In this document: positions 16,911-48,063 of the stretch, one piece after another
Position numbering within the stretch: the first letter of the stretch is position 1
Layout: every line of letters starts with the position of its first letter
NCBI GenBank assembly: GCA_030680695.1
Contig: JAUXUT010000149.1
Location: forward strand, 39,801-103,800
DNA from: a bacterium
Lineage (GTDB): Bacteria; Patescibacteriota; Minisyncoccia; Phycocordibacterales; UBA6065
DNA: 64,000 bases
Direction of reading: 5' to 3'
Program-made: the position numbers and the translations under genes
The notes under the pieces: model-generated
Databases searched by the model: none
The model's input: only the letters and a program-made list of their open reading frames with translations
What the model was told of the DNA's origin: nothing

Positions 16911-16912
16911 TG

Positions 16913-17305
16913 TGGAGATGCTGGGAGTCGAACCCAGGTGCACATGATCCTTCTCAACACTTCTACGCGATGTAGCTATTCTTTACCCCGATTAAGGGGT
17001 GTTAGGGCCGAGGGCTCGAGGAATAGCAGAACGCCCTTGACCCGATCCTCGTCGGCCGAAGCCGTTTACCGTGGGGAGAGGAGTCCCCGCGGCTATCCTG
17101 CATCTATGTCGCTGCTTGCCGGCGCGTCAGGAATGCACCGGGGCATCGTCGCTTAGGCTAGAGCGTAAGCGAATGAGAAATCCTTTGCCGCGAAAAACGG
17201 CGATTTGATGGATTTAGCATTTGTGGGTTCGGACAGATTAAAGAGTTATCCGGGCTCTATCGCGCATGAAGAGAAGGGAAGCATATGTCTATGCCTTTCA
17301 TCCCC
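16913..17305 (-). ncRNA. ssrA: tmRNA (ssrA)
   Basis: Minus strand: 5' GGGGATG... pairs with 3' ...CATCTCCA; T-arm CTGGGTTCGACTCCCAG; candidate tag ORF gca aag gat ttc tca ttc gct tac gct cta gcc TAA (AKDFSFAYALA); immediately downstream of smpB. Confidence 0.8.
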
Positions 17306-20935: not shown

Positions 20936-21008
20936 GCGCCCTTAGCTCAGTTGGTAGAGCGATCGACTTATACTCGATTGGTCGGGGGTTCGAGTCCCTC
21001 AGGGCGCA
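20936..21008 (+). tRNA. tRNA-Ile with anticodon TAT (UAU)
   Basis: Cloverleaf: acceptor GCGCCCT/AGGGCGC, D-arm GCTC..GAGC, anticodon stem ATCGA/TCGAT with loop CTTATAC, T-arm GGGGGTTCGAGTCCCTC; no encoded CCA. Confidence 0.8.
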
Positions 21009-21023
21009 CACGTTTCAGACCCA

Positions 21024-23806: not shown

Positions 23807-23895
23807 GGAGACGTGTCAGAGTGGTCTAACGTGCCTCTTTGCTAAAGAGGTGTACCCCTTAAAAGGTACCGAGGGTTCGAATCCCTCCGTCTCCG
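23807..23895 (+). tRNA. tRNA-Ser(GCT)
   Basis: Acceptor GGAGACG/CGTCTCC, anticodon loop TTGCTAA, long variable arm, T-arm GAGGGTTCGAATCCCTC. Confidence 0.9.
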
Positions 23896-24003
23896 CTACA
23901 AAAACTTTCTTTCGGAGTGACCCGAGTACCCCGGATTTCGGCTGAAAATAACGCTCGTATAGAACGTTCGAATCCCAGATAGGTGAGGGGACTAGATACA
24001 GGG
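23894..24003 (+). repeat. Direct repeat DR-A copy 1 (attL-like, abuts tRNA-Ser)
   Basis: About 110 bp repeated at 24859-24966 (~80% identity); first 36 bp also at 47921. Confidence 0.7.
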
Positions 24004-24037
24004 ACGGATAGGGTGTAAATGACCCGGAAACGTATAC

Positions 24038-24066
24038 TTGACTTATACGAGTATTGGGTGTATAAT
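24038..24066 (+). promoter_or_regulatory. Consensus sigma70-type promoter (TTGACT-17-TATAAT)
   Basis: ttgact tatacgagtattgggtg tataat, 120 nt upstream of the 24186 ORF. Confidence 0.6.
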
Positions 24067-24185
24067 ATATAAGTAAAAGTACTTTGAGAGACCGCGGTGT
24101 TTCGGTTGAGTTTGGAAGGAAATAAGCGATTGACTTGCTGGCACAAAGCCACGCGGATCGTAGGTTTCCTCACTAAACTCAACTC

Positions 24186-24680
24186 ATGAACACCATCACT
24201 CAAATCCCTGCTTGGGAAATCATCCGTCTTATCGCGAGAGCTCGTGCGAACTTCGTTCAGACTGTATGGAAAGAACTCAAACGCCAATCTGGCAAGCAAC
24301 CGTCTGAGAACGAAGAAAGCTATATTCGACAGGCTGCGGAAAACTTCGTCGGGCGCACTAGCGTCACGGGCGAGGCGATTGAAGCGGGCGAATACAGCCG
24401 GTCGTGCTCGATCGTTTTTCTGGGGGAGGCCCATAAGCAACTTGCCTACTTCGTGCCCTCCAAACTTCTGCTGCGCGATGTCGTCATTAACGATCAGGAA
24501 AAGGGTAATCTTCACGAGGGTTACTTGGTCACCGTGACCGTGCCCGAAGGCACGGACATCATCGAGTTCGATGGACGGAATGAGCCGCTCTGCCTGAAAG
24601 GAACGGTGTCGGCCGTGTTCGGGACATGCCTCCATGGCGAAGACGGATTCATTGTCTCGAGCTTCAAGCATACGACCTAA
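24186..24680 (+). CDS. Hypothetical protein (sole gene of mini-element E1)
   Basis: ORF with consensus promoter upstream and intrinsic terminator (24731-24758) downstream; the antisense 323-aa ORF is rejected. Confidence 0.5.
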   Translation: MNTITQIPAWEIIRLIARARANFVQTVWKELKRQSGKQPSENEESYIRQAAENFVGRTSVTGEAIEAGEYSRSCSIVFLGEAHKQLAYFVPSKLLLRDVVINDQEKGNLHEGYLVTVTVPEGTDIIEFDGRNEPLCLKGTVSAVFGTCLHGEDGFIVSSFKHTT

Positions 24681-24730
24681 TAGCGGTATCCCGCTCCAGT
24701 TCCTTGAGAGTCTGGCCAAACACTCTCTGC

Positions 24731-24758
24731 AACCCGCATTCGTGCGGGTTTTGTTTTG
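24731..24758 (+). terminator. Intrinsic terminator
   Basis: caacccgcattcgtgcgggttttgttttg. Confidence 0.65.
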
Positions 24759-24777
24759 TCTGGAAAGAAAAACTACG

Positions 24778-24860
24778 TGGGATTCGAACGAAATTTTTAA
24801 AGGGAAGGGGTCATATTTTAAGCCACGCAATTCGCGCCGTTCGAATCGCTTTTAACCCGC
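24778..24860 (+). repeat. Direct repeat DR2 copy 1 (degenerate tRNA 3'-like segment)
   Basis: tgggattcgaacg...tcatattttaagccac...ccgttcgaatcgcttttaacccgc; second copy at 33558-33639. Confidence 0.65.
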
Positions 24861-24966
24861 TACAAAAACTTTCTTTCGGAGTGACCCGAGTACTTCGATT
24901 TTCAGCTTGTTTATTAGTTAGAAAAGAACGTTCGAATCCCAGGTGGGTAGGGAACTAGATACAGGG
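24859..24966 (+). repeat. Direct repeat DR-A copy 2
   Basis: See copy 1. Confidence 0.7.
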
Positions 24967-25226: not shown

Positions 25227-26357
25227 CTAATCTTTAATGATCCTACTTAAAAAAGGATTAATATTAGTCGCAATGTCATCTGGTATCGTACCGCATTCTC
25301 TTGCAATATTCATAATAGAATTCTGGTCTCTCGCATCACTGCTAATGACTGTAACAGGGCTACCGAGTTTTACATCCTTGATTTCCGTCACATCAATTAT
25401 TGTCGTATTCATACTTACCAAACCGATTATTTTCGCAAAGTTATTGCCAATTTTTACCACGCCTTTATTTGATAGTCGTCTATCAACTCCCGTATCGTAG
25501 CCAACAGGTATTATGGCAATCTTTTTAGCTGAATCTGAAATATATGTCCCGCTGTAACCAACTTTTGAGTTTGGTTCAATATTTTTTAATCCTGATATAA
25601 CCGTTGTCAATTCCAGCACAGGCTTCAAATGAACTAACGAGTCAACTTTTCCATTGCCAGCAAAACCATATAGACCCATTCCAGGGCGAGTCACATTCGC
25701 ACTGATCTTTTCGTTATAGCCATGGCCAGCTGAATTACTTACATGAAAGTATCGGATGTTAGTAAAATTGGTTTTGAAAATATCGACAGCAGAATTCCAT
25801 GCTTCAATTTGGATATTTGTATAAGTCGAATCTGTATTACCTGCATCAGAAAAATGAGAATAAAGTCCTTCTAGTTTAAGAGTCGGTGATTTTTTTATGA
25901 GCTCAATCGATTGAGAGATTTGAGACAGAGAGATTCCTTGCCTATTCATTCCCGTATCAATTTTTATATGCACATTAGTTTTTTTACTTATTCTGCTTTG
26001 CCATTCGTAAAGCATGTCTAGACTCGTAACAGCGAATGATATATTTTTTTGGGTCGATTTGTTTACGGTTTCAGCTTGAATGTATCCAATTACGAGAATT
26101 GGGTTCGTTATTTTGTTCTGCCTGAGAGCTATGGCCTCCTCGTACGAATCAATAATAAAAAAAGGAATTTTTTCTTTACTTAATAATTTTGCAATATCGA
26201 TTAATCCATGGCCGTAGGCGTTGCTTTTTAATACTGGAGCTATGGCAGGTGAAAGTTTTTGAAATTCTTGGAAATTGTGGATAAGAGCCCGTCGAGAAAG
26301 TGATATGAGAGTGTACGGAGTTGATGGAGACTTTAACTTAAATGTGATTTTTATCAT
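25227..26357 (-). CDS. alr: Alanine racemase
   Basis: VLKSNAYGHG PLP-Lys motif, C-terminal VSMNTTIIDVT; low-GC context. Confidence 0.85.
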   Translation of the reverse strand: MIKITFKLKSPSTPYTLISLSRRALIHNFQEFQKLSPAIAPVLKSNAYGHGLIDIAKLLSKEKIPFFIIDSYEEAIALRQNKITNPILVIGYIQAETVNKSTQKNISFAVTSLDMLYEWQSRISKKTNVHIKIDTGMNRQGISLSQISQSIELIKKSPTLKLEGLYSHFSDAGNTDSTYTNIQIEAWNSAVDIFKTNFTNIRYFHVSNSAGHGYNEKISANVTRPGMGLYGFAGNGKVDSLVHLKPVLELTTVISGLKNIEPNSKVGYSGTYISDSAKKIAIIPVGYDTGVDRRLSNKGVVKIGNNFAKIIGLVSMNTTIIDVTEIKDVKLGSPVTVISSDARDQNSIMNIARECGTIPDDIATNINPFLSRIIKD

Positions 26358-26391
26358 TGAGATATTTTGATATTTATACTATTATACCCTT

Positions 26392-27846
26392 ATGTCAAGT
26401 GAACTAAAAAACAACAAGGTTGAAAAAAAGATTACCGGTAGGAATGAGGATTATTCCCAGTGGTATCTCGATATAGTTGCATCTGCCGATCTCGCAGAAT
26501 GGGGCCCTGTAAAGGGATGTATGGTCATCAAGCCTTATGGATATGCATTATGGGAAAAGACGCAGCAAATCCTCAATGAAAAATTCAAGGAGACTGGGGT
26601 ACAGAATGCATATTTCCCGATTTTTATTCCCGAAAAATTTCTCAATAAAGAGAAAGACCATATCGAGGGTTTTGCACCAGAGGTTGCGGTTGTCACTCAT
26701 GCCGGCGGCAAGAAGCTCGACGAGCCTTTGATTGTGAGGCCGACATCAGAGACTATAATGTACGAAACTTTTTCTCGTTGGATACATTCTTATCGAGATC
26801 TGCCATTGTTGATTAATCAATGGGCAAATGTGGTTAGGTGGGAGATGCGTCCCCGCATATTTTTACGTACGGTTGAATTTCTTTGGCAAGAAGGACATAC
26901 GGTTCACGAAACTGAAAGTGAGGCAGATGGACGGGCACGCCAGATGTTGGAAATTTATAAAGATATTGCCGAAAATATTATGGCCATTCCAGTTATTACT
27001 GGAACAAAATCTGATTCGGAAAAGTTTGCTGGTGCGTTTAAGACTTATTCGCTTGAAGCCATGATGCAAGACGGCAAAGCTTTGCAGTTTGCCACCTCAC
27101 ACAATTTGGGACAAAATTTTGCAAAAGCGTTTGATGTTAAATTTCTCGATAAAAACAACACCGTCCAATATGGATGGCAAACCAGCTGGGGGCTAAGCAC
27201 GCGAACCATAGGCGGTCTTATCATGACTCATAGTGATGATAAAGGATTAGTATTGCCACCAAAAATCGCCTCAATTCAAACGGTTATTACAACCATCGTT
27301 CCTTCCGAAAAAGACAGAGAAATGATAAATCAGAAAGCCCAAGAGCTTAACATACTCTTAAAGAAAGCAGGCGTTAGAACCCATGTTGATAGTCGCGATA
27401 TACGCCCTGGTGAAAAATATTATGAATGGGAAAAAAAAGGTGTTCCGATACGTATAGAGCTTGGGCCAAGAGATGTAGCCAGCGATTCCGCCATGCTTGT
27501 TAGACGCGATACTGGGGAAAAGACAAAGACAACCATGAGTTCTCTGGTCGGGGATATCAATTCTCTGTTAAATAACATACAGCAAAATTTGTACGTGCGA
27601 GCACTAGATTATCGCAAAGCAAAGACAAAAAAAGTTGATTCTTGGGATGAGTTTGTAAAAGCGATTGAGGAAGGCAATTTTGTTTTAGCTCATTGGTCTG
27701 GTGAGAAGAACGTCGAGGCTCAGATAAAAGAAGAAACGGGAGCCACTATTCGATGCATTCCGTTTGATCAGACAAATGAGTCTGGAAAATGTATAAAATC
27801 AGGCATGCCTTCTACGGGTCGGGTGATATTTGCGAAGTCTTATTAA
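26392..27846 (+). CDS. proS: Prolyl-tRNA synthetase, archaeal/eukaryotic-like class II type
   Basis: WYLDIV..ADLAEWGPVKGCMVIKPYGYALWE, VRPTSETIMY, NQWANVVRWEMR.R.FLRT.EFLWQEGHT and a C-terminal zinc-binding-like domain. Confidence 0.9.
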   Translation: MSSELKNNKVEKKITGRNEDYSQWYLDIVASADLAEWGPVKGCMVIKPYGYALWEKTQQILNEKFKETGVQNAYFPIFIPEKFLNKEKDHIEGFAPEVAVVTHAGGKKLDEPLIVRPTSETIMYETFSRWIHSYRDLPLLINQWANVVRWEMRPRIFLRTVEFLWQEGHTVHETESEADGRARQMLEIYKDIAENIMAIPVITGTKSDSEKFAGAFKTYSLEAMMQDGKALQFATSHNLGQNFAKAFDVKFLDKNNTVQYGWQTSWGLSTRTIGGLIMTHSDDKGLVLPPKIASIQTVITTIVPSEKDREMINQKAQELNILLKKAGVRTHVDSRDIRPGEKYYEWEKKGVPIRIELGPRDVASDSAMLVRRDTGEKTKTTMSSLVGDINSLLNNIQQNLYVRALDYRKAKTKKVDSWDEFVKAIEEGNFVLAHWSGEKNVEAQIKEETGATIRCIPFDQTNESGKCIKSGMPSTGRVIFAKSY

Positions 27847-27854
27847 CCCACTTT

Positions 27855-29021
27855 ATGCCCTTTAAGGTATCTATACATGATGATCTGTCTATAAAAGATC
27901 TGATAGATATTAAAGATAAGGGAGGGGTGGTGTTAAAAACACCGCATGTCGGCAATATCTACCCTAACAATCTTGCAATTGCGTCTTTAGGTATACCAAT
28001 GCTCTTTTACGATAGGACTTTGGGGGTCAAAGATATAAGTTTTCATCCAGATAAAATTATTATTGGTGGCAGGTCAACGTTAATAGCCGACCCAAACATT
28101 TTAACCACGCATTCAATAGTCAAAAAGCTTCCAGGTTTAGCGTTTAAAGATGCAGCTGTCGGTATGAAGCTGGTGGATTTTCATATGTCCTCATTTAAAC
28201 GTGCGTTACCTCAGGCGGACTGTTTTACCTACACGGAATATATTCAAAATAATAAAAGTCAGATTCTCCAGATTTTAGAAAAAATCACAGAATTTCATCC
28301 ATATTTGTGGAGCAGAGGTGTTGATGAAAGCGGAAAGACTTTTAAATCTCAAGCAAAAAATTGGGACGACATCATTAGGTCGGGAGTCCTGGGGCTTACC
28401 AGTATGAAAAGTGGTTGGATTATACCTAATCCGGTCAGCATCCTTTTTCATGGAACCGTTGATACGCTAAAGGCAAACGCAGAAGATGTGTATCTCTTAT
28501 CGGGTCCAGACATGTATCGATACATAGAGGGATACCAACTCGAACTTAACGAGGCGTACGACTATTTAAGAAAAAGCTTAAAGTGTGAACTTCCTGAAAT
28601 GGTTCGTTGTCATATTATTCCTGTCATTTGCATGAGATTTATCGTTGAGGTTGATTATAGGAAAGTGCTAGATAATTTGGTCGATGCATACTTGAGATAT
28701 GTATCTGTCGATGATGCTATCAGAAAAATACTAAAGAGTGGCGCTCAAAACATGAGCATCGATGGGCACATAAATAAAAAGGATAAAATAAAAGAGGAAA
28801 TCTATTCTTGTATCAAAGGTCAATTTGATGCATTCAAAACTACCATGTTTTATGATGTCGAGGAGGCGGGCAGTTTTAGTCAGTATGATCTCGCCAATAG
28901 TAAGGGACTATACGTTCATCCGTGGGCGGTCAATAGTAAACTAAGCGATGTATCCAAGGCTTATAGTTTTTTATTGAGGTGCTATTTGCTCGTAAGAGAT
29001 AGGCTACAGGAAGAGATGTAG
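27855..29021 (+). CDS. Hypothetical protein (389 aa), unknown family
   Basis: ORF; start moved to the MPFKVS Met to clear proS. Confidence 0.45.
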   Translation: MPFKVSIHDDLSIKDLIDIKDKGGVVLKTPHVGNIYPNNLAIASLGIPMLFYDRTLGVKDISFHPDKIIIGGRSTLIADPNILTTHSIVKKLPGLAFKDAAVGMKLVDFHMSSFKRALPQADCFTYTEYIQNNKSQILQILEKITEFHPYLWSRGVDESGKTFKSQAKNWDDIIRSGVLGLTSMKSGWIIPNPVSILFHGTVDTLKANAEDVYLLSGPDMYRYIEGYQLELNEAYDYLRKSLKCELPEMVRCHIIPVICMRFIVEVDYRKVLDNLVDAYLRYVSVDDAIRKILKSGAQNMSIDGHINKKDKIKEEIYSCIKGQFDAFKTTMFYDVEEAGSFSQYDLANSKGLYVHPWAVNSKLSDVSKAYSFLLRCYLLVRDRLQEEM

Positions 29022-29029
29022 CTACTGAT

Positions 29030-29782
29030 ATGTCAATGGAATATGATCCAATTTTATACGATTCCGATCCAAGGCCTTTTCTTAAAGATGAGATAGAATT
29101 TTACGTGAAACTAGTCAATAAATTAAAAGCTAAAACGATACTAGAGCTCGGTGTAGGAACAGGAAGAATTTTTTCAAAGTTACTTCCGTTGGTTAAATTT
29201 GCCGAGGGGCTTGATATTTCGGAATCAATGTTAACCGCATGCAGAAATAAGTGTTCTGGTAGCATGAACTACAAATTACATAAAGCGAGTTTTACGGATT
29301 TTAATTTGCAAACTACATTTGATTTGATATACCTGCCCTTTAATACTTTTCAACACCTGCTTACGCAGGAAGAGCAAATTGAGTGCTTGATAAATATTAA
29401 AAATCACATGCACGTGGGCAGTCGATTCATCCTTGATGTAATGAATGGCGATAATTTAATTTTTGATTTTGAAAACTGGAAACAGGACTATGTGGGCACT
29501 TTGGCTGAAGGTGGATCAGTTGAGCGCGAACAAAAAACGATTAAAGTAGATTCAAAGAATTTTATCATCCATAAAATATTCAGGTATAAAGAAATTGTCG
29601 CTGGTAAGATTGATAAAATTCTTGAATTTAATGCACAGATGAAAGTAACTCCAAATAAGAAGATGGGGGAAATTTTACAGATGACTGGCTTTAAGATAGA
29701 AGACGTATGGTCTGATTACGCTTTCAGTTATACGTGCGACGCGAAGAAAATAATTTATTGCTTAAAATTAAATGGAGTTTAA
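29030..29782 (+). CDS. Class I SAM-dependent methyltransferase
   Basis: ILELGVGTGR motif I and downstream acidic-loop motifs. Confidence 0.7.
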   Translation: MSMEYDPILYDSDPRPFLKDEIEFYVKLVNKLKAKTILELGVGTGRIFSKLLPLVKFAEGLDISESMLTACRNKCSGSMNYKLHKASFTDFNLQTTFDLIYLPFNTFQHLLTQEEQIECLINIKNHMHVGSRFILDVMNGDNLIFDFENWKQDYVGTLAEGGSVEREQKTIKVDSKNFIIHKIFRYKEIVAGKIDKILEFNAQMKVTPNKKMGEILQMTGFKIEDVWSDYAFSYTCDAKKIIYCLKLNGV

Positions 29783-31070
29783 ACCAACTACTATAAAGCT
29801 AGAAAAAGGACAGGTGGTCACATCAATTTACCATAGTCCATTTGACTACAATCTTCTGTACCTTATTTGTCTCGCAAAAACTGGGTTGAAGGTAAGAATC
29901 ATCCTGGACGATATAGATAATTTGGGAGTGGATAAAAGCTTTCCTGAGGGGCCATATTCTTTCAGTGAAAAGTTTTTTATGAGTAAAACAGAAAGAACAA
30001 ATATTCGAGCCCTGTCACTGATAACCCCAAAACATCTCTTTGCAAATTTGTCGCACCCAAACCTTAAGGAGTTTGACTCGAAAATCGGTATATCCACGTT
30101 CAAAGAAAACATCAGATATAGAGATACTGTTGAGCACTGGATCAGGGATGTTACGAAAGATTTCGGCACTTTTTCTCTTATTGGGCCAGATAGATCGTAC
30201 GCTTTTACCATAGTCGATCATTTTTTTGTTCAAGCAATTAGCGATGCTAAGCAGCAAATAATTGATATCTTGAAAAAATTCCCTGATCATAAAGATAACT
30301 CGATTGAATTTATTGAATGGCTTTTTGATGAAAAAGCCATTTCAATCGGCACGCCTGTCTCTGATTATTTTTTATCAGTGATGCAAAAGATCGTTGATAA
30401 ATTTGATTTGCGCGATACCGTATCAGTAGAAAGGATGTCGGACTCGGGTATTGAAGCGAATACAAAAAAACTTATGGATTCATTTACCAACAAAGATTCC
30501 CTGTGGGAGACGTATAATTATGCGGTGGTAATTGAAGGTAAAAAAAATACGGAGGATTTTCCATTTTACGCCATATCTAAGATGGACGGGAAAAGATTGC
30601 TACCTACTGATAAATACACAAATGATCCTACCAGTTATTTTCTTGCACCGAAGGTGTTGATGCTTAACAATTTTGAAAACCTCGTCTTGCCATATCATGC
30701 AATGGGTAGCATGAATGTCCGCGCCAGACAGGCAATGTATCAAAACAAAGAAATAAATTGCAATCAAATTTTCTGTGACGACGAATGGATGAAACACATA
30801 GGTTCTTTCAATATCAAGGCACAACTCGATACTGAGGAGCAAAAGATATATGATATGGATACAGTAAATTTATCTTCACTAGGAGATTTATTTGCGAAAG
30901 GGAAAAAATCATACGGAGACAGCGTAAATACAGAAGAGGCCTATAAGGGTTGGATAATTACCTCGACTTTCAATGCTATTGATCGCGTCAAATACCCACT
31001 AATTTTTATGGCACTCCTCCAAAAAGAAGTTTTTCCTACAAAAATTCCTATTTTTTACAAATTAGCATGA
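29772..31070 (+). CDS. Hypothetical protein (432 aa), unknown family
   Basis: ORF co-oriented and tightly packed with neighbours. Confidence 0.45.
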   Translation: MEFKPTTIKLEKGQVVTSIYHSPFDYNLLYLICLAKTGLKVRIILDDIDNLGVDKSFPEGPYSFSEKFFMSKTERTNIRALSLITPKHLFANLSHPNLKEFDSKIGISTFKENIRYRDTVEHWIRDVTKDFGTFSLIGPDRSYAFTIVDHFFVQAISDAKQQIIDILKKFPDHKDNSIEFIEWLFDEKAISIGTPVSDYFLSVMQKIVDKFDLRDTVSVERMSDSGIEANTKKLMDSFTNKDSLWETYNYAVVIEGKKNTEDFPFYAISKMDGKRLLPTDKYTNDPTSYFLAPKVLMLNNFENLVLPYHAMGSMNVRARQAMYQNKEINCNQIFCDDEWMKHIGSFNIKAQLDTEEQKIYDMDTVNLSSLGDLFAKGKKSYGDSVNTEEAYKGWIITSTFNAIDRVKYPLIFMALLQKEVFPTKIPIFYKLA

Positions 31071-32374
31071 TGTTGACTCTTCTCGAAAAAACGGCCGCGG
31101 CATTAATTTTAAAATTCAAACCCACGGTCGTGTGCATCACGGGTAGCGTGGGCAAGACTTCAACTAAGGAAGCAATAGCCTCTGCATTATCGACCTCCTA
31201 CACAGTCAGAAAGACTTCCCGAAATTATAATAATGATTACGGAGTACCGATAGCCGTTATCGGAGGATTTGAATCAGAAGAGGGCTATTTGGCATTACTT
31301 ACGATACTTGGCTACGGTTTATGGCAATTATACTTTCGATCAAGATTTCCACAGATTTTAGTCATAGAAGTCGGTGCCGGAAAATTTGGAGAAATCGAGA
31401 GAATCTCCCGATGGCTAAAACCTGATATGGTCGTAGTGACCAATCTCCCAGATGTTCCATCCCATCTTGGTGTTTTCGGGTCAAAAGAGATGATTATTAA
31501 GGAAAAGAAATTTCTTGTCAGTGCAATGGATAAAGAAGGAATTTTGATAATCGATAAAAACGAAAGAAATGCGAGGTATTTTTACGAGGATTTCTCCGGT
31601 AAAATTGTATTTTTTGATGCAGATAAATTTATTGAAGGCAGTAAATATACTATTGTGTATGAAGATCGAAACGATTTTAATTATCCGCTCGGTTTTAAAT
31701 TTGAGGTTGAATTAAACAACGCTGTAGACAGAAAATCCGTGACTTTTGAAGGATTTTTGGGTATTCAAAATATGAAGGCTGTTGGAATAGCGGTTTTGGT
31801 CGCTAAACAGTTAAATTGTCGAGTAGAAGATACTTTGCAAGGTATAAAAAAATATAAACCTGAGTGCGGACGCCTCAGAATAATCCCAGAGCTTAATGGA
31901 AAAATAATAGTGCTCGACGATACGTTTAATGCTTCGCCACGCGCGATTGAAAACTCATTAAGAACGCTTCTATCTTTGGAATTAAAAAAAAGCCAACGAC
32001 GGATCGCTGTTTTGGGAGATATGCTTAATTTTGGAAAAGAGGTAGAAAAGATTCACAGACAAACTGCCACGGAAGAATTACCACAGGTCGATATTCTTAT
32101 AACGGTAGGAAACATATCAGTTGTCTGGCAAGAATTTAATAGAAATAAATACCATTTGAACAAGCATTTTAAAAATGCGACTAACGCCGCTCGGTATATA
32201 GAGAAATTTCAAAAAGAAGGCAATATTATCCTTTTTAAAGGAGGTCATTTAACACGTCTTGAGAAAGCGGTTGCCATTCTAACTGGATGCCCCTCCGAGT
32301 ATCTTGTTCGACAAGAGAAGTACTACGAGATACACGAACTCGATCTTAATCCAATATCCGCCGACAATGAATAA
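31067..32374 (+). CDS. Mur ligase family protein, MurF-like (D-Ala-D-Ala-adding-enzyme-like)
   Basis: VVCITGSVGKTSTKEAIASAL P-loop, VTNLPDVPSHLGVFGSKE, GRLRII...IVLDDTFNASP and AVLGDMLNFG motifs of MurF or the CphA C-domain. Confidence 0.7.
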   Translation: MMLTLLEKTAAALILKFKPTVVCITGSVGKTSTKEAIASALSTSYTVRKTSRNYNNDYGVPIAVIGGFESEEGYLALLTILGYGLWQLYFRSRFPQILVIEVGAGKFGEIERISRWLKPDMVVVTNLPDVPSHLGVFGSKEMIIKEKKFLVSAMDKEGILIIDKNERNARYFYEDFSGKIVFFDADKFIEGSKYTIVYEDRNDFNYPLGFKFEVELNNAVDRKSVTFEGFLGIQNMKAVGIAVLVAKQLNCRVEDTLQGIKKYKPECGRLRIIPELNGKIIVLDDTFNASPRAIENSLRTLLSLELKKSQRRIAVLGDMLNFGKEVEKIHRQTATEELPQVDILITVGNISVVWQEFNRNKYHLNKHFKNATNAARYIEKFQKEGNIILFKGGHLTRLEKAVAILTGCPSEYLVRQEKYYEIHELDLNPISADNE

Positions 32375-33356
32375 ATACAAATCAAAAATTACTCCAATTT
32401 TGTTGAAGTTGGCCGAAAAATACAACGCTGAATTTCATGTAATGGATCACGATTCTGACGCTGGTTATATCGTAGGGCAAGATCACAGCAGACATTATTT
32501 TTCCTATGGAACACTGGATTTGAATAATGATGCCGCTACTGATTTTGCGAGAAGTAAGATTCTATCCTCTGAAGTCGTTTCGGCGATTAGGATCAGGGTT
32601 CCGAAGGAAAAGATGGTTAAATTCTCAATAAATTTAAAGGCCCCTATCATTAGTGTTTTGGAGGAAATCGGAACACCCGCGATAATAAAACCAGTACATG
32701 GAGCACAGGGAAAAAATATATTTAAGATAGATTCCTTAAATAATTTTGAGCTAGTTATTAAGAATAACGATTTGAGGGATGATTTAATCATTCAAGAATA
32801 TATTGACTCTCCAAATGAGATCAGGGTCGTTCTTTTAGACGGTGAAGTAATACAGGCATATAAGAGAGATTATGCGTGTGTTATCGGCGACGCGGTAAAA
32901 ACGATAAAAGAATTGATCGAAGAAAAGAATAAATATTTTCAGAACAGACAACGTAATACTGTTATCGATACAAATGACACCCAGATAGCTGTCATTCTTC
33001 AGCAACGTGGATACGATTTGAATTACATACTACAAAAAAATGAAAGACTAAATATTTCTTATGGGCGTAATTTATCGAGAGGCGGAGAGTATGAGTTTAT
33101 TACCAAGCTCAGTCCGATAATCATAGAAGTTTCTAAAAAGATTGCTGAGGCCTCCGCTCTGAGGCTGGTGGGCATTGATTTGTTTGTTGTGGGAGATCTT
33201 GACCATGTAGAGAGCGAGAATCAAATTATCTTCATAGAATATAATGCATCACCAGATATGGAGAATAATTTCTATTATGATGCTGGCTACGAACAACAAT
33301 TATTTTTGATATATGAAAAAATCTTTAGTGGAATGTGCAAATATTCCTTATTGTAA
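32367..33356 (+). CDS. ATP-grasp ligase, cyanophycin-synthetase-N-domain / RimK-like
   Basis: IIKPVHGAQGKNIF; VIGDAVKTIKELIEEKN...LNISYGRNLSRGGEYEF...LVGIDLFVV...IFIEYNASPDME; ATGA start-stop overlap with the MurF-like gene. Confidence 0.65.
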   Translation: MNKYKSKITPILLKLAEKYNAEFHVMDHDSDAGYIVGQDHSRHYFSYGTLDLNNDAATDFARSKILSSEVVSAIRIRVPKEKMVKFSINLKAPIISVLEEIGTPAIIKPVHGAQGKNIFKIDSLNNFELVIKNNDLRDDLIIQEYIDSPNEIRVVLLDGEVIQAYKRDYACVIGDAVKTIKELIEEKNKYFQNRQRNTVIDTNDTQIAVILQQRGYDLNYILQKNERLNISYGRNLSRGGEYEFITKLSPIIIEVSKKIAEASALRLVGIDLFVVGDLDHVESENQIIFIEYNASPDMENNFYYDAGYEQQLFLIYEKIFSGMCKYSLL

Positions 33357-33557: not shown

Positions 33558-33639
33558 TGGGATTCGAACGGAATCTCGGAGAGGCGTATTCATATTTTAA
33601 GCCACAAAATCCGCTCCGTTCGAATCGCTTTAAACCCGC
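33558..33639 (+). repeat. Direct repeat DR2 copy 2 (E2/E3 junction)
   Basis: See DR2 copy 1. Confidence 0.65.
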
Positions 33640-33762
33640 CTTGACAATTTAGTATCGGCGTGACCCTATTACTCGCGAGAGTAGTGCGACCCACGAACCT
33701 GCTAGATTGTACAAAACACCAAGAGAATTCTCTTGGTGTTTTGTTGTTTATATAATTATGAA

Positions 33763-34468: not shown

Positions 34469-35311
34469 CTAAATTATCCTCCCATCAATTTCGTGGAATA
34501 AATTGCTGACCATGATAAGGCGACCGAGTGCATCGTGATGCGGAAGCTGATCTTCATCGCCGTGACTAAGATTATTCCTCCACCAGTGCATGATGCCCAT
34601 AGTGGTAAGTTTGAAGCCGAGTTGCTTATTGATCTCCTGCGGTGTTGATAGAGCGTTGAACTTTATTTTCGGGTTCTGCTCACTGAAAACAGCCGCCATC
34701 AAATCAGACCCTTGCTTATCATGAGTGCTTGTAAGGTCTTGGATCGTCTTCTCGAACCTTTCAAGGGCTTTCCGCACTGACTCGTTGATATGACCCTCGA
34801 TGAACATTTTTTTGCAGTCAGGCAGAAGCGATGGATGAAGAACAAACGCATCAAGTATTTTTTGAATCGCTATCGGAGGTGGCACTGTCCTCGGTCTTTC
34901 CTTTGGAAGATTCATTGCTACAATTTCTGATTCAAGATCAATATTGAGAGCCTTAAGTCGGGTTGAAAGTTCGAGTGCTTCAGCTTCCAATACAGGATCG
35001 CCTTTCTCGTGTCGCTTTTCTATTGCCTTCGGTAGCATCTCCCGCACGAGGATTTTTATTGTTCTTGGCTTCTGGCAATAAAGATTTCGCAAGAACTCAT
35101 AGAAAGACTCCTTCTTGTTGGCTGCTTTCGTAGGAAGATATTTCGACAAACCCCTTTCTTTTGCAATTGTCGTCAAAGAAAAGGAACTTCGGAATCCTGA
35201 AAGAGCGATGAGCTTTCCGAGCTGTTCTGCCAGTGCACGGATCGCCTGCGCTTGCGGTGCTGTGACGGTCACTCTTTTCTTTGCAATCTTTTTCTTGGTC
35301 TTCTTTTTCAT
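34469..35311 (-). CDS. Abi_C/HEPN-like protein (TIGR02391-like)
   Basis: C-terminal MHWWRNNLSHGDEDQLPHHDA containing an Rx4H HEPN-type motif of the Abi_C kind; Lys-rich N-terminus. Confidence 0.5.
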   Translation of the reverse strand: MKKKTKKKIAKKRVTVTAPQAQAIRALAEQLGKLIALSGFRSSFSLTTIAKERGLSKYLPTKAANKKESFYEFLRNLYCQKPRTIKILVREMLPKAIEKRHEKGDPVLEAEALELSTRLKALNIDLESEIVAMNLPKERPRTVPPPIAIQKILDAFVLHPSLLPDCKKMFIEGHINESVRKALERFEKTIQDLTSTHDKQGSDLMAAVFSEQNPKIKFNALSTPQEINKQLGFKLTTMGIMHWWRNNLSHGDEDQLPHHDALGRLIMVSNLFHEIDGRII

Positions 35312-35983: not shown

Positions 35984-37333
35984 TTATTCCGTCACCAAGG
36001 TCAGAGTCTTGTCCTTGTAGATGATTCTCGATCGCAGATTCGCTAACAGCTCCCGCTTCTCGCTCGTCATACCTTCCTTGAGAATGTACTTGGCATAGTT
36101 GCGGATATCGGTATCCTTGTCGGTCTTGATCTTTTCCGTTGCTCCAAGCACCGATCTCTGGAATATATTGTATCGGTTGATCTCTTCCTCAAGCTTCTGC
36201 CTCATGCCAAGCTCGTTGATGTTCACCTTGTCGAGAATTTTCAGAAGCTCCGTGATGAGTTCCTCCTCACGGATATATTTGTTCTTGCAATTTCTGTCTC
36301 TTGCTCGTGAACATGAGTAGTAGATGTAGCGGTTGGCACCACCATCTTTCAATTGCTTCCATTTCTCCTCCGCCGATATTCCACTCTGGCAATATCCGCA
36401 GGTAAATAATTTGGTGAAGGCAAACTCTTTCGTCTCTCGCACGATCTGATCACGCTTCAGTTGTGCTTTCACTTTTTCAAACAATTCCTGCGTGATGAGT
36501 GGCTGATGTTTTCCTTGATACCAGTTGCCACTCTCCCTCGGTCTCTCAAAGATTCCGTAGTAGAAGGGATTCTCAAGTATTCGATAGACTCCACTTAAGG
36601 TCAGTGGCTTGTTGCCTCTGGTGTAGAAGTTCAGCTCGAACCTCATCCAGTTGTAGACCTTCCGTCCACTCCATTGCTCGTATGCGACTTTCTCAAACAT
36701 CTTTTTGATGGTCGGCGCTCTTTGCGGATCGACAAGCACCTGTCCTTTCTTATCCATGTGCTTTTGGTTTAGATATCCAAGGGGCGCCGTTCCGACCCAT
36801 AGTCCCATCTCGCATCGCGTTCTAAGTCCTCGCTTCACGTTGATGCCTCGGTTGTCGTTTTCCAATTTCGCTTGAGAACAGAGAATCATCAGCATGAATT
36901 TGTCGTTCGGGCTGTTCGTGAATCTCTGTCCGTAGGTGCGGATGTCCTGCAAATAATTTCCATCCATGAGGTCGATGACTTTCCCGAGATCGCCTGCGTT
37001 TCTTGAAATACGGTCTGGTGCCCATGTTAGTATTCCGTTGAATTTTCCTTGCTTGATCTCATCCACGATCTCGTTGAAGACGGGGCGTTGCCCAGTCTCC
37101 TTGGCCGAGTGCGACTCTCGCTTCATGGTCACGATCTCCAACCCCTCACGCTCGGCAAGCTGAAGCATCTCATTGATTTGGCTATCTATGGAGAGGACTT
37201 GCCGTTCCTCCGATTCCGTCGACTTTCTTGCGTAAAGGCAGTATTTCACCTTTACGGGGCTTGCTACTTTGGCCGCAGTCCCTAATGGCTCTGGTCCTTG
37301 TATTCTTGTCATACAACACAAGGAATGACGCAA
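35984..37333 (-). CDS. Large serine recombinase (integrase)
   Basis: N-terminal resolvase catalytic domain YARKSTESEE...SIDSQ, recombinase domain, C-terminal Cys zinc ribbon and coiled coil. Confidence 0.85.
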   Translation of the reverse strand: MRHSLCCMTRIQGPEPLGTAAKVASPVKVKYCLYARKSTESEERQVLSIDSQINEMLQLAEREGLEIVTMKRESHSAKETGQRPVFNEIVDEIKQGKFNGILTWAPDRISRNAGDLGKVIDLMDGNYLQDIRTYGQRFTNSPNDKFMLMILCSQAKLENDNRGINVKRGLRTRCEMGLWVGTAPLGYLNQKHMDKKGQVLVDPQRAPTIKKMFEKVAYEQWSGRKVYNWMRFELNFYTRGNKPLTLSGVYRILENPFYYGIFERPRESGNWYQGKHQPLITQELFEKVKAQLKRDQIVRETKEFAFTKLFTCGYCQSGISAEEKWKQLKDGGANRYIYYSCSRARDRNCKNKYIREEELITELLKILDKVNINELGMRQKLEEEINRYNIFQRSVLGATEKIKTDKDTDIRNYAKYILKEGMTSEKRELLANLRSRIIYKDKTLTLVTE

Positions 37334-38720: not shown

Positions 38721-38948
38721 GTGATTGGCACTGCTCGTCACACAGAGGAAAAGACGTTCACTGTGCTGTATCGACCTCTATACGAAAATGATTGGTTCAA
38801 ACCTGCTACCTACCAAGCAAGGCCGCTAGAAATGTTCAACGAAAGTGTCACGAAAGATGGCAAGGCGATTCCTCGTTTTCAGCAGATAACCGATCCAGAG
38901 TTAATTGCAAAACTCGAAAAGATGCGAGATCAAATTTATGGAAAATAA
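38721..38948 (+). CDS. DUF1653-family small protein; conserved N-terminus extends upstream without an ATG
   Basis: In-frame upstream read-through gives PPTGFYYHYKHDPNGPFNDYSYEVIGTARHTEEKTFTVLYRPLY...RPLEMF, the DUF1653 pattern; the open frame begins at 38649 (ATA) after a TAA. Confidence 0.5.
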   Translation: MIGTARHTEEKTFTVLYRPLYENDWFKPATYQARPLEMFNESVTKDGKAIPRFQQITDPELIAKLEKMRDQIYGK

Positions 38949-39489
38949 TAAAGAGCAAAATATAAAAATACTAAAAGCAATTCCAGAAGACGCTCTGGGT
39001 ATTACGACTGTTCTATATAAAACCTGGCTCGATACATATCCAAACGAAGAAATTGGCATCACCAAGGAAGATGTTGAGGAAAGTTATAAAGACCACTTCA
39101 TGGAGGAGCGAGTGAAAAAGCAACAGGAGAATATTGCAAATGCTCCAGCGAATCAACTGCGACTTGTTGCAAAATCTGGTGATCAGATTGTTGGAGTCTC
39201 AACGATGATTCGTAATGAAAATAATAATCAGCTAAGGACAATTTATGTTCTCCCTGAATTTCAAGGAAGGGGCATCGGTCAAATGTTGTGGAAAGAAGCG
39301 CAAAAGTTTTGTGATTCGACAAAAGATACTATTGTTCAAGTTGCTACCTACAACAAAAATGCCATATCTTTTTACGAAAAATTAGGTTTTACAGATACTG
39401 GTAAAAGATGGTCCGATGATAAATGGAAGATGAAGAGTGGTGCAACTATTCCAGAAATGGAGCTAATCATAAAAGTAAATAATTTATAA
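38938..39489 (+). CDS. GNAT-family N-acetyltransferase
   Basis: LRTIYVLPEFQGRGIGQMLW acetyl-CoA-binding motif A. Confidence 0.7.
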   Translation: MENNKEQNIKILKAIPEDALGITTVLYKTWLDTYPNEEIGITKEDVEESYKDHFMEERVKKQQENIANAPANQLRLVAKSGDQIVGVSTMIRNENNNQLRTIYVLPEFQGRGIGQMLWKEAQKFCDSTKDTIVQVATYNKNAISFYEKLGFTDTGKRWSDDKWKMKSGATIPEMELIIKVNNL

Positions 39490-39493
39490 ACGT

Positions 39494-40846
39494 ATGCCCT
39501 TAATGACTTATGACGAATATCAAAAGAATCGACACAAAACTCCCTATCTTCTTACGATAAGAGCGGGTTCAAATTTTCTCTATTATTTTGGAGAACGCCA
39601 CTCATTTAATCCAGAAGACACCCAATGGGTTGAAGAAAAAGAATTTTGGGACAAGTTTTTGTCTGACACAGAAAATCAGAAAAGAATCGTCTTTGTTGAA
39701 GGCGGTAAGCGACCAGATGAAGTAGACGAAAAACAATCGATTCTCAAACATGGTGGAATGGGTCTCACGACATATTTCGCACATCAAGCAGGCATAGAGA
39801 CATATTCACCTGAACCAGATGAAAAATGGGAACGCTCTGAACTGGAAAAAGAATTTACGAGAGAACAAATCCAGTGCTATTACTTCTCTCGTGTCGTTCA
39901 TCAATGGGGTCGCAAGCAAAATCCAAAACCAGTATTTGAAGAATATATAACACACTTTCTAGAGGGTGATAAAAAAGAAAGTGGGTGGAGTGATTTTGAT
40001 TTCTCACTTGAATCAATGAAGAAGATTTATGTCGATATTTTTCATACTGCTTTTAATGAGAATAATACTGATTTTTTCTATAGTGTAGTTAATCCTGTCG
40101 AGCTGAAGACGATTGTTAACAAAGTATCTCGCGCCTCAAGCGAAATACGCGATAAATATATCGTTGGAAAAATAGAGGAATATATCAAACAAGAATACTC
40201 AATCTTCGCTCAATACGGATGCAGCCACGTTGTAATGCAGGAACCTCTATTAAAGGAAATTTTTTCAGAGTCTCAAAAAGATTGGTCAGACTACTACAAG
40301 GCAACCAAAGCAAAACCTCCACGCCCCTTGTTGGTGAAGGCGTTTGAATATGTTGCCGAGAAAAATAAGGCAATCGATATTGGCGGTGGTGCACTCAACG
40401 ATACGAAGTATCTTCTTAAACAAGGCTTTGATGTTACCGTGATCGATAAAAGCCCTCTCATGGAACAAGAGGCTAAGAATATTCCGAGTGACAGGCTGCA
40501 TGCTTTCACTGTCGGGTTTGAAGATTTCGATTTTTTAGAGAATGAATATGATCTCGCGTCCGCAATGTATGCTTTGCCATTTATTGATCCCGCTCATTTC
40601 GATTCCATCTTTACCAAAATAAAAAGTTCTCTCAAGACAGGTGGCATATTCTGCGGTCAGTTTTTTGGAGAGCGTGATGAGTGGTCAACGAATCCAAAAA
40701 TGACTTTTCACACAAAAGAGCAAGCGGAAAATCTACTCAGCGATTTAGAGATCATTTCTTTCAAGGAAGAAGAAAAGGAAGATAAAACAGCCAAGGGCGA
40801 TATGAAGCATTGGCATATCTTTCACATAATCGCTCGGAAAAAATAA
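39494..40846 (+). CDS. Fusion protein: unknown N-domain plus C-terminal class I SAM methyltransferase (TehB-like)
   Basis: AIDIGGGALNDTKYLLKQGFDVTVIDKSP motif I; about 270-aa N-domain of unknown function. Confidence 0.55.
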   Translation: MPLMTYDEYQKNRHKTPYLLTIRAGSNFLYYFGERHSFNPEDTQWVEEKEFWDKFLSDTENQKRIVFVEGGKRPDEVDEKQSILKHGGMGLTTYFAHQAGIETYSPEPDEKWERSELEKEFTREQIQCYYFSRVVHQWGRKQNPKPVFEEYITHFLEGDKKESGWSDFDFSLESMKKIYVDIFHTAFNENNTDFFYSVVNPVELKTIVNKVSRASSEIRDKYIVGKIEEYIKQEYSIFAQYGCSHVVMQEPLLKEIFSESQKDWSDYYKATKAKPPRPLLVKAFEYVAEKNKAIDIGGGALNDTKYLLKQGFDVTVIDKSPLMEQEAKNIPSDRLHAFTVGFEDFDFLENEYDLASAMYALPFIDPAHFDSIFTKIKSSLKTGGIFCGQFFGERDEWSTNPKMTFHTKEQAENLLSDLEIISFKEEEKEDKTAKGDMKHWHIFHIIARKK

Positions 40847-40848
40847 TA

Positions 40849-41835
40849 TGGAAGCCATTTTACAAAAAATAACAGATCAATACGGACTTCGACTACAGCA
40901 TCTACAAAAAGTAGACCAAGGTTTTTTGACTGATAATCATATCCATCACGGATGGAGCGACCAAGTATTTTTTAAAGAAGTACAGGTTTAAAAATGTAGA
41001 GAAAATTAAGGAAATCCATTCCGTTAAGAAATATTTCTCAGACGGAGGGATTTCTGTCATCATGCCGATTAACACGAAAGACGGGAATAGCTTCTTCGAA
41101 CTAGAGGAAAGCTTTTATGCTCTATTTCCTTTTATCGATGATCGGCAAATGCAAGGCGAACAAATTACAAACAAAGCGGTTATCTCCTTGGCTGAAACCT
41201 TGGCAAGAATGCACCTCTTGGGTCGGGATGCCAAAATACCAGTAAGTGATTCTTTCAAGATGTGGGACAGGCAAAAGAGACTATCTGCCATTGAACAGAT
41301 TTTGGAGAAGATAAGCCAAATAAAAAATAAATCCGATTTTGATATTCGAGCCGAAAAGAACATTCTTTTCAAGAAAAATATTATTGAGTCGAAAAAAGAG
41401 GAGTATGAAAACTTGAAATTCAATAATGATCACTTGATACATGGTGATTATATGATCCAAAATGTGTTCTTTGATGGAAACGATAATGTTTCCTACGTTT
41501 TTGATTTTGAGAAAACGCAATACGCACCGCGATTTTTCGAACTATTCCGAGCAATGATTTATAGTTCATTTTTCGATAAGGAAATTACTGAAGCAATGGT
41601 GGCGCGCACAAAGCTCTTTTTGGATTCGTATCTCGAAATATATCCCGCAACTAAAGAAGATCTCGTAGAGAATTTTGAGATGTATTATTTGAGATCAGCC
41701 CATTCCGTATGGGTAGAAGAAGAGCACTATTTGAGGAATAATGACAGAGTTGATGAGCTCCTGAAAAGTGACATCGTACGAGTTAATTATCTGACGAATA
41801 ATTTAGAAAGCCTGAAGCTATTTTTGTTTAAATAA
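40849..41835 (+). pseudogene. APH/choline-kinase-family phosphotransferase, frameshifted paralog of gene 6380-7363
   Basis: N-terminal fragment MEAILQKITDQYGL...FFKEVQV stops at about 40990; the frame resumes (...SDGGISVIMPINTKDGNSFFELEESFYALFPFID) and aligns to the chromosomal YFLKQ...LFPFIEG paralog; C-part has HGDYMIQNVFFDGN and VFDFEKTQY. Confidence 0.5.
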
Positions 41836-47350: not shown

Positions 47351-47920
47351 ATATTTTCTTCGTTATTAATAATGGGCACAGTATGCGTTCTTAATTCGAG
47401 CAGAAGTGTAGGAATTGCTTTTCTGCTCTTGGCACTATGGTAAATCCCAAAAAGTGACAAATCGTGGTGCATTACTTTTGCCTCCTACAATGCTACTCGT
47501 GAAAAAATGCAAAAAGGTGTGCATTACTTTCGCCACCCAGAATCGTATGCTGGCCAACGCATCCAATTAGTGGGTATTGAAATCGTATCGGGCCAAAAGC
47601 CTCCTGTCTGGGGGAATTACCTGGCAAGAAATAGATATAAAAATTAGTCCAGTGATCCTCTGAAAATATGCAAAATCAAAATGGCACACTGCTTTGGCAC
47701 AGTGTGCTGTTTCAATACCTCTAAAATACCCTTATGTGGCTTGGTGGATGATATCTAAACCGCCTTGCAAACACTCATTTGAAACACTGCCCCTGCGTGT
47801 GCCAAATTGTGCCAATTTGGAAAAACTAGACCCCGACCCACGAACTTCAAATTGGTCAGTCCGAATATGCTAAAATACCCTTACAAGGTCTTACTTGTGG
47901 GGTACTTAACCCACGATGCC

Positions 47921-47956
47921 CGCTACAAAAACTTTCTTTCGGAGTGTCCCAGGTAC
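47921..47956 (+). repeat. Direct repeat DR-A copy 3 (right boundary of the island)
   Basis: cgctacaaaaactttctttcggagtgtcccaggtac; GC content rises immediately after. Confidence 0.65.
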
Positions 47957-48063
47957 GTCGACTCTCACCTGAAAACAACATCCCAATCCAGCGTCACAAT
48001 CTCAGATGGCTTCGGAACCAGATGTGGACAGGTTTTACCACTACCACACGTTATACTTACCTT

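Follow-up and report, generated by a model that had tools for sequence, protein, structure and literature searches.

Here, we describe a six-gene operon in a 64,000-nucleotide stretch of a Patescibacteria contig (JAUXUT010000149.1, positions 39,801 to 103,800; hereafter, the window), centered on two genes, unkA and unkB, whose products belong to no curated protein family. On the + strand of the window, six close-packed open reading frames (ORFs) encode, in order, a prolyl-tRNA synthetase (ProRS, gene proS), unkA, an S-adenosylmethionine (SAM)-dependent methyltransferase, unkB, a Mur ligase derived from MurF, and an ATP-grasp ligase (Table 1). Eight nucleotides separate proS from unkA, and likewise unkA from the methyltransferase gene; from there on the genes overlap, by 11 nt (methyltransferase/unkB), 4 nt (unkB/MurF-like), and 8 nt (MurF-like/ATP-grasp, with the start of the last gene set at 32367 from the L007 gene call). 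A putative promoter lies before proS, and the ATP-grasp gene is followed by a strong terminator-like hairpin, as would fit a single transcript. An earlier reading of this DNA from its letters and ORFs alone (the sequence-only reading) had singled out two proteins of 389 and 432 amino acids without assignable motifs, co-directional and tightly packed with a SAM methyltransferase between them and with a ligase pair, inside a block called E2. This layout is confirmed here, as is the size of the second protein, whereas the count of 389 includes the stop codon and the real length is 388.

Table 1. Features of the operon and of the tRNA-Ser island array around it (window coordinates)
Feature	Position	Strand	Basis and remarks
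tRNA-Ser(GCU)	23807..23896	+	ARAGORN, Rfam; integration target of the island array
Left att-like repeat of E2	24811..24944	+	Pseudo-tRNA 3' half plus CCCGCTACAAAAACTTTCTTTCGGAGTGACCCGAGTAC core
Alanine racemase (alr)	25227..26357	-	TIGR00492, 275.7 bits against a cutoff of 168; divergent from the operon, inside the low-GC block
Promoter-like site TTGAGA-17-TATTAT	26357..26385	+	Consensus scan; directly 5' of proS; weak, in a region poorer in such sites than shuffled sequence
ProRS, archaeal/eukaryote-like type	26392..27846	+	TIGR00408, 604 bits against a cutoff of 437; first cassette gene
unkA	27855..29021	+	1167 nt, 388 amino acids plus stop
Class-I SAM methyltransferase	29030..29782	+	250 amino acids; Pfam Methyltransf_25/31/12/11
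unkB	29772..31070	+	432 amino acids, orphan family
MurF-derived Mur ligase without N-terminal domain	31067..32374	+	Mur_ligase_M, Mur_ligase_C (Pfam)
ATP-grasp ligase, CphA G-domain/GshB/RimK type	32367..33356	+	
Right att-like repeat of E2	33590..33673	+	80% identical to 24811-24894
Terminator-like hairpin	33711..33744	+	15-bp stem and T run; 3' of the operon
Large serine recombinase of E3	35984..37333	-	Resolvase, Recombinase, Zn_ribbon_recom domains
Distal att-like repeat	47900..48007	+	Closes the whole tRNA-Ser array; GC climbs here from 0.44 to 0.57

Both orphan genes have many diverged homologs and are therefore real genes, not chance ORFs. We recovered 80 to 105 homologs of unkA (105 by profile), with identities down to 21%, and approximately 30 close and 5 distant homologs of unkB; taken together, the homologs of the two proteins span 21 to 79% identity. 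The identical (100%) matches are locus tags Q8L64_03720 and Q8L64_03730 of a metagenome-assembled genome assigned to the Patescibacteria (candidate phyla radiation, CPR). An alternative start of unkA at 27789 would give a protein of 410 amino acids, but the homologs begin at a conserved MPFxIxI, which corresponds to position 27855 and favors that start.

Neither protein could be placed in a family. Searches of Pfam and NCBIfam returned nothing for unkA or unkB at E ≤ 0.1 beyond sub-threshold noise, Pfam scans of 48 unkA homologs taken singly gave noise alone even at E ≤ 10, and Pfam scans of the N-terminal fragments gave nothing. PADLOC and PHROGs contained no match for either protein, nor did sequence-profile searches of the PDB with three alignments, including a deep one of 57 unkA sequences. 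Neither BLASTP nor hhalign relates unkA to unkB. The cyclodipeptide synthase (CDPS) family model had no match among 77 unkA and unkB homologs (E ≤ 10), and the proteins, at 388 to 432 amino acids and with at least two modeled domains each, differ in build from the CDPS, an aminoacyl-tRNA synthetase (aaRS)-like domain of approximately 200 to 300 amino acids without ATP motifs. The AlphaFold (AF2) models of both are nonetheless confident, with a predicted local distance difference test score (pLDDT) of 94 for unkA and likewise 94 for unkB. unkA and unkB are thus well-conserved, confidently folded orphan families. Confident assignment to a housekeeping family, the outcome that would have spoken against the sequence-only reading, did not arise in homology, profile, or structure searches, and its suggestion that these two proteins are the likeliest carriers of new activity in the block is supported. 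A defense-system reading was also considered and set aside; PADLOC gave a generic methyltransferase domain alone.

The order ProRS-unkA-methyltransferase-unkB-MurF-like-ATP-grasp is kept in every related contig with enough flank, so that the co-occurrence with the ligase pair for which the earlier reading had called extends to the full set of genes. The loci showing the operon are the window, L001, L008/L009, L010, L100, L102, L103, L104, and, in part, L106, and proS directly precedes unkA in nine of nine informative loci. Nucleotide homology between loci spans proS to the ATP-grasp gene, with nothing shared upstream of proS and with unrelated flanks. The divergent alr is found upstream in the window, L001, and L100 only, and is absent from L008, L010, and L102 to L104. 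proS, together with alr in some copies, is part of the mobile unit, a point that the sequence-only reading did not mention. As a separate observation, unkA is broken into two ORFs (159 and 169 amino acids) in L102 (8075-9248), where the other five genes are intact, representing either a pseudogene or an assembly error.

The ProRS at the head of the operon has a history of its own. Between L102 and L103, amino acid identity is 80 to 88% from unkA to the ATP-grasp ligase and only 55% for ProRS. The ProRS of L102 instead matches its counterparts in L008 and L104 at 87 to 89% identity, although the other genes of these two loci are only 43 to 58% identical. The breakpoint of this swap coincides with the junction of proS and unkA, and no common DNA is seen upstream of proS. 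The operon is therefore a mosaic in which a ProRS has been kept before unkA through gene replacement, which argues for a functional link between the two. The nearest ProRSs outside cassettes are other CPR enzymes at 59 to 71% identity, none of which adjoins a cassette.

The block that carries the operon is bracketed by 84-nt direct repeats (24811-24894 and 33590-33673), which include the 3' half of a pseudo-tRNA; the E2 of the sequence-only reading is thus a real unit. The 3' end of an intact tRNA-Ser gene and its downstream sequence are repeated at 24837-24944 and 47900-48007, and the CCCGCTACAAAAACTTTCTTTCGGAGTGACCCGAGTAC core of the left repeat also occurs immediately 3' of this tRNA-Ser (23807-23896) and at approximately position 47920. 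In total, tRNA-Ser-derived repeats lie at 23873-23980, 24811-24944, 33590-33673, and 47900-48007. Because the core and the repeats recur in this way along the locus, we recognize three elements arrayed in tandem at tRNA-Ser: E1 (approximately 23.9 to 24.8 kb), E2 with the cassette, and E3 (33.7 to 48.0 kb). From alr to the ATP-grasp gene, GC content is 34 to 42% and GC at third codon positions (GC3) 31 to 39% (alr itself, 36% and 31%), compared to approximately 50 to 58% GC in the flanks and the genome, and the other cassette-bearing contigs are at 33 to 40% GC. In L008/L009, tblastn places a recombinase 59% identical to that of E3, together with an HTH_17 gene, directly upstream of the cassette, a position taken in L010 by an IS200-type Y1 transposase. 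Repeats of a tRNA 3' end, foreign GC, and an associated recombinase, the hallmarks of tRNA-integrated islands, are all present. The operon is mobile, the cargo of tRNA-integrating, serine-recombinase-associated islands traded among Patescibacteria. unkB was not found in the viral contigs of IMG/VR, and neither unkA nor unkB in the INPHARED phages or PLSDB plasmids.

The remaining enzymes of the cassette can be recognized. The closest PDB relatives of the methyltransferase are CorZ (9SOT; E, 1.3e-16), CcbJ, CypM, ToxA, and sugar N,N-dimethyltransferases, and its top NCBIfam match is the daptide N-methyltransferase, below the cutoff of that model. In celesticetin, CcbJ places a methyl group on the nitrogen that derives from proline. 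The target of CorZ is the free N-terminal amine of a natural product, a tripeptide (PMC12951456). Since the enzymes closest to it among solved structures act on the free amines of small peptides or on a prolyl nitrogen, the cassette enzyme is probably an amine N-methyltransferase. A role as azetidine-2-carboxylic acid (AZE) synthase was rejected, these nearest solved relatives being ordinary amine N-methyltransferases.

By sequence comparison, the "ligase pair" of the earlier reading consists of a MurF derivative lacking domain 1 and an ATP-grasp enzyme of the CphA/GshB/RimK type. The MurF-like protein scores 207.5 bits with the murF model TIGR01143, against a cutoff of 288.6, and its residues 3 to 6 align to MurF residues 69 to 84, so that domain 1, and with it the three-domain build of MurF, is missing; for this reason it is unlikely to be a housekeeping MurF. 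The best matches of the ATP-grasp protein are the CphA G domain, Ngg, RimK, and GshAB, whereas the Ddl models give 13 to 27 bits, far from their cutoffs of 243 to 495. ATP-grasp enzymes of the CphA-G/GshB/RimK type extend the C-terminal carboxylate of peptides.

Across 57 unkA sequences, the invariant residues are H31, G33, N39, D53, D60, P65, H110, P191, S216-G-P-D-M220, Y223, L246-P247, Q343, and D345. H31 and G33 form part of a T/S-P/A-H-V-G-N signature in which N34 is kept in at least 90% of these sequences, down to 21% identity. The model places H31-V-G-N34 between a strand (25-28) and a helix (37-44), in a loop of the alpha/beta region (1-265), which is followed by a helical domain (266-388). 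This arrangement may correspond to the H-x-G-H of HIGH-type enzymes after the first Rossmann strand, with the last His replaced by Asn; TrpRS has TIGN. Approximately 25 of the top 35 Foldseek matches of unkA are HUP-class proteins, namely ArgRS from five species, PanC from seven, GluRS, and TyrRS, each insignificant alone; the best match overall has an E value of 0.035, a probability of 0.35, and a template modeling (TM) score of approximately 0.2. Neither a second class-I aaRS signature nor a significant profile match was found.

The unkA family extends well outside the cassette (105 proteins by profile). In Uhrbacteria, homologs at 33 to 38% identity are followed by an M19 dipeptidase and a racemase of the Asp/Glu type and of the size of MurI, with MurA a few genes away. 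At 21 to 26% identity, unkA forms a coupled operon of overlapping genes with an Asp/Glu-type racemase (220 to 249 amino acids) and an alpha/beta-hydrolase (approximately 306 amino acids), seen on four independent contigs, one of them 1.7 Mb long. These trios (L002/L004, 10001-13112; L096/L098, 8001-10829) look like uncharacterized D-amino-acid or peptide modules in their own right. An amino acid racemase adjoins unkA in each of the three independent contexts examined, Alr in the window included, which ties unkA to D-amino-acid chemistry. As a best hypothesis, which these features weakly support, unkA would be a HUP-like adenylate-forming amide ligase for a D-amino acid.

The unkB family is smaller, with 11 clusters recovered when 1.84 billion representative proteins were searched exhaustively by profile, five of them distant full-length clusters (P0112 and P0115 to P0118) at 20 to 35% identity. 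Among the positions that never vary in the wide family are D46-D47-x-D49-x-x-G52, where the second strand ends, R79, G138, Y248, G273, R275, R319, and Y408-P409, and K72, N77, and K294 are nearly invariant. This residue set suggests binding of Mg2+ and of a phosphate or nucleotide. Foldseek gave no match for unkB with E < 0.3 in PDB or BFVD. PF16581, a family that accompanies HIGH-type nucleotidyltransferases, matches 2 of 29 unkB homologs over residues 194 to 279 with 21 and 16 bits, against a cutoff of 26.7, and is only a lead; no match to PF05636 or PF16581 reaches the gathering score that would place unkB with the TmcAL-like HIGH_NTase1 proteins.

The contexts of the distant unkB homologs are similarly informative. 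An overlapping methyltransferase gene again precedes P0115 (25% identity), so that the cassette shares its methyltransferase-unkB pair with one of three distant contexts. P0116 (L109, 237-3067) lies between an overlapping major facilitator superfamily (MFS) transporter gene and a SerRS-like gene cut by the contig end, whose 101 residues resemble the N terminus of a genuine CPR SerRS. Given the ProRS of the cassette and this SerRS-like gene, the recurrent partners of unkB are a methyltransferase and, in two contexts, an aaRS. P0117 (L014, 1-11389; 70% GC) is found at a contig end, at the edge of a region encoding an M20 peptidase, an HMGL-like protein, a heme-oxygenase-like oxidase, a class-IV aminotransferase, RraA-like and MR/MLE proteins, and an MFS transporter, a run of genes that, from their predicted families, is typical of the biosynthesis of nonproteinogenic amino acids. 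Neighbors of 478 and 443 amino acids beside the distant homologs are unrelated to unkA, unkB, and each other.

We tentatively propose, with somewhat less than even confidence, that the operon encodes a mobile, ligase-based pathway, independent of nonribosomal peptide synthetases (NRPS), that leads to a small modified peptide or conjugate and has unkA and unkB as its uncharacterized core enzymes. Alr would supply D-alanine (D-Ala), and the ATP-grasp enzyme and the domain-1-less MurF derivative would build or extend the chain at its C-terminal carboxylate, by analogy with Ddl-MurF. With its Rossmann/HUP-like fold and HVGN signature, unkA could act as a third, adenylate-forming amide ligase on the D-amino acid. 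ProRS would activate proline, and unkB, with its acidic DDxD motif and several invariant Arg and Lys residues, may acylate an amine with the proline of Pro-tRNA or Pro-AMP. N-methylation of the resulting free amine would then fall to the methyltransferase, whose gene is translationally coupled to unkB, and the product foreseen would be a small N-methylated peptide with D-Ala and Pro. In a bolder form of this proposal, which we regard as a long shot, unkB would found a new structural class of enzymes that transfer an aminoacyl group from the product of an aaRS to an amine (from Pro-tRNAPro here and Ser-tRNA in the distant relative), unkA would be a HUP-type D-amino-acid ligase, and the two together would make a traded, Patescibacteria-borne peptide, possibly an antibiotic directed at ProRS. 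There is a modest chance that unkB is a truly new enzyme class.

Several observations weigh against the proposed pathway. Neither protein has a statistically significant fold or sequence match; for unkA, hhalign with Escherichia coli PanC gives a probability of 0.9% over a segment that is not the HIGH region, no KMSKS-like motif is present, and the invariant loop reads SGPDM. The residues H31, D53, D60, H110, D219, and D345 of unkA would suit a metal-dependent hydrolase equally well, and the peptidases that accompany unkA outside the cassette match peptide catabolism as well as ligation. On the side of unkB, the SerRS-like gene by P0116 is truncated (101 residues visible; PF02403, E 9e-5, 23 bits against a cutoff of 28), and an IS110 transposase separates P0117 from the biosynthetic-looking region of L014. 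Compared column by column with 76 relatives, ProRS shows no substitution specific to the cassette, the sole candidate, T154P, also occurring in 4 of 12 non-cassette CPR enzymes, so that the cassette ProRS bears no mark of specialization. Finally, a transporter, a precursor peptide, and a regulator were looked for within the cassette and none was found; likewise, its intergenic ends held no convincing precursor of a ribosomally synthesized and posttranslationally modified peptide (RiPP) or other small ORF.

The genes could instead serve a Van-like remodeling of cell wall precursors, in which Alr, a dipeptide ligase (unkA or the ATP-grasp enzyme), and an alternative MurF would alter the terminus or side chain of the stem peptide, with ProRS and unkB adding a residue delivered by tRNA in the manner of Fem/MurM enzymes. 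The genuine Alr and the MurF-derived neighbor, with its 207 bits to TIGR01143, are in line with this, as are the trios outside the cassette in which unkA stands with a dipeptidase and a racemase of MurI size, not far from MurA; an arrangement of this kind parallels vanC-vanXY-vanT, and altered walls would be useful accessory cargo for episymbionts facing wall-targeting agents. However, the MurF-like protein falls below the murF cutoff and lacks domain 1, the ATP-grasp enzyme is far closer to CphA, GshB, and RimK than to Ddl, and no MraY, MurG, or Fem-type gene is linked. To our knowledge, an amine N-methyltransferase has no role in stem-peptide synthesis, which also counts against wall remodeling, and we consider this explanation unlikely. 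At the opposite end, there may be no joint pathway at all, with a housekeeping proS (and alr) lying beside conserved hypothetical genes and unkA acting as a metal-dependent peptidase or amidase that scavenges D-amino-acid peptides, unrelated to the ligases. The wholly ordinary ProRS, the peptidases and racemases around the wider unkA family, invariant His and Asp residues suited to a metallohydrolase, and a creatininase among the weak Foldseek matches of unkA (rank 40) are in line with such chance juxtaposition. It does not explain why six genes, overlapping or spaced by 8 nt, are passed on together as a block in at least nine loci whose flanks are unrelated, nor why, in the window, the foreign GC of the block extends to proS and alr and both lie inside the att-like repeats, nor the exchange of ProRS by recombination with its position preserved. 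Mobility, operon structure, and the mosaic yet retained ProRS thus lead us to disfavor juxtaposition, which we hold to be improbable.

A third explanation, a special case of the ligase-based pathway, takes ProRS as an immunity gene: a prolyl-adenylate mimic or a "Trojan-horse" peptide with a proline analogue would inhibit the ProRS of competitors or hosts, and the cassette enzyme would be the self-resistance copy. In line with this, the first gene of this mobile, biosynthetic-looking operon is always an aaRS, which persists even across replacement by another ProRS lineage, and the DDxD motif and the Arg/Lys invariants of unkB would suit nucleotide chemistry. In its favor, extra aaRS copies are resistance genes in the clusters of ascamycin, SB-203208, agrocin 84, and mupirocin (PMC12945691; PMC11229370), and natural inhibitors of ProRS include phosmidosine and cispentacin (PMC11229370). 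Against it, cassette-specific substitutions are missing from ProRS, and two ProRS lineages only approximately 55% identical serve alike, which is odd for a specialized resistant allele; in addition, the cassette is without an exporter, and immunity presupposes a second, sensitive proS. We rate this special case as quite unlikely, and the ligase-based pathway with unkA and unkB at its core remains the reading that we prefer.

Genes for aaRSs in biosynthetic clusters act as suppliers of aminoacyl-tRNA and/or as immunity genes (PMC12945691; PMC2922099). As in the cassette, an aaRS is fixed among tailoring and ligating enzymes in the clusters of ascamycin (acmD/acmF), SB-203208 (sbzA) (PMC12945691), and valanimycin (vlmL/vlmA) (PMC2922099). 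The cassette shares with such peptide clusters an amine methyltransferase, ATP-dependent amide ligases, and an accessory, horizontally mobile distribution. In contrast to these clusters of actinomycetes, its host is a member of the Patescibacteria, its aaRS-using enzyme is not a recognizable Fem/GNAT protein, CDPS, or aaRS paralog, and its ligases are a truncated MurF and a CphA/RimK-type ATP-grasp enzyme. What is new relative to known aaRS-embedding ligase clusters is therefore the Patescibacteria host, the MurF without domain 1, and the two orphan, confidently folded core proteins. No work on this cassette was found in the literature, nor any linking Patescibacteria, ProRS, and ATP-grasp.

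Partial resemblances to other systems are also seen. The Ddl-MurF pair and VanC-type operons likewise combine a racemase, an ATP-grasp enzyme, and a MurF-type ligase, and the Uhrbacteria unkA trios mirror the Van layout, although the cassette MurF lacks domain 1, its ATP-grasp enzyme is not Ddl-like, unkA is not an ATP-grasp protein, and the methyltransferase, unkB, and ProRS have no counterpart there. CphA1 joins an ATP-grasp G domain and a Mur-ligase-like M domain, two ligase superfamilies that stand side by side in the cassette; here, however, they are separate genes in reverse order, without an N domain, and the Mur partner is MurF-derived (207 bits to murF versus 22 to CphA). With the HUP-class amide ligases and class-I aaRS-like proteins (PanC, MshC, the MetRS paralogs of Aravind et al. 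2010, and CDPS), unkA shares the succession of strand, H-x-G-N loop, and helix, and an alpha/beta domain followed by a helical one, whereas it shows no significant score, no KMSKS, and no Pfam match to CDPS or tRNA-synt families; the idea of aaRS-like peptide ligases was taken from earlier work (PMC2922099). The similarity of the methyltransferase to the CorZ/BytZ, CcbJ, and CypM N-methyltransferases, its nearest solved relatives, covers only approximately 140 aligned residues (E, 1e-16 to 1e-5).

The other elements of the array and of the window deserve brief mention. E3 encodes a terminase large subunit (698-amino-acid ORF, 42844-44940, - strand; phrog_38, E 6.5e-80) and, beside the terminase gene and the serine recombinase, two N6/N4 DNA methylases (45331-47350, - strand), and has the appearance of a decayed CPR prophage or of a phage-like island that inserted in tandem with the cassette. 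A second low-GC block within E3 (36 to 39%; 38905-41835, + strand) encodes a GNAT acetyltransferase, a 450-amino-acid protein with a C-terminal methyltransferase domain, and an APH-family phosphotransferase, and may be a small resistance or modification module. E1 (23897-24836) spans 0.9 kb between tRNA-Ser repeats, contains a lone 164-amino-acid ORF (24186-24680; 54% GC) without family match, and could be the remnant of a third integration event. Just outside the cassette, 34469-35311 (- strand) matches Hypoth_Ymh/TIGR02391 and, in PADLOC, the HEPN-type defense components Aga_HEPN and PD-Lambda-3_B (E, approximately 1e-9). Further upstream, the window has a tRNA-Ile with anticodon UAU (20936-21009, + strand), which is unusual in bacteria, where AUA is mostly read by a lysidine-modified CAU tRNA, and a transfer-messenger RNA (tmRNA; 16910-17305, - strand) whose predicted tag, AKSIKSPFFAAKDFSFAYALA, exceeds typical tags in length and in aromatic content.

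The metabolism of Patescibacteria is commonly regarded as minimal and largely degradative, with almost no secondary metabolism. A traded unit of 7 to 8 kb represents a large share of a genome of approximately 0.65 Mb, and this one is devoted to four or five ATP-dependent activating enzymes, which suggests a dedicated small peptide for dealing with hosts or competitors. unkA and unkB make good candidates for an amide-bond or aminoacyl-transfer chemistry of a new kind, and the fixed yet exchangeable ProRS offers an experimental handle on whether it supplies Pro-tRNA or confers immunity. Should unkB indeed form a new class and unkA be a D-amino-acid ligase, the operon would represent an undescribed secondary metabolism in these ultra-small episymbionts.

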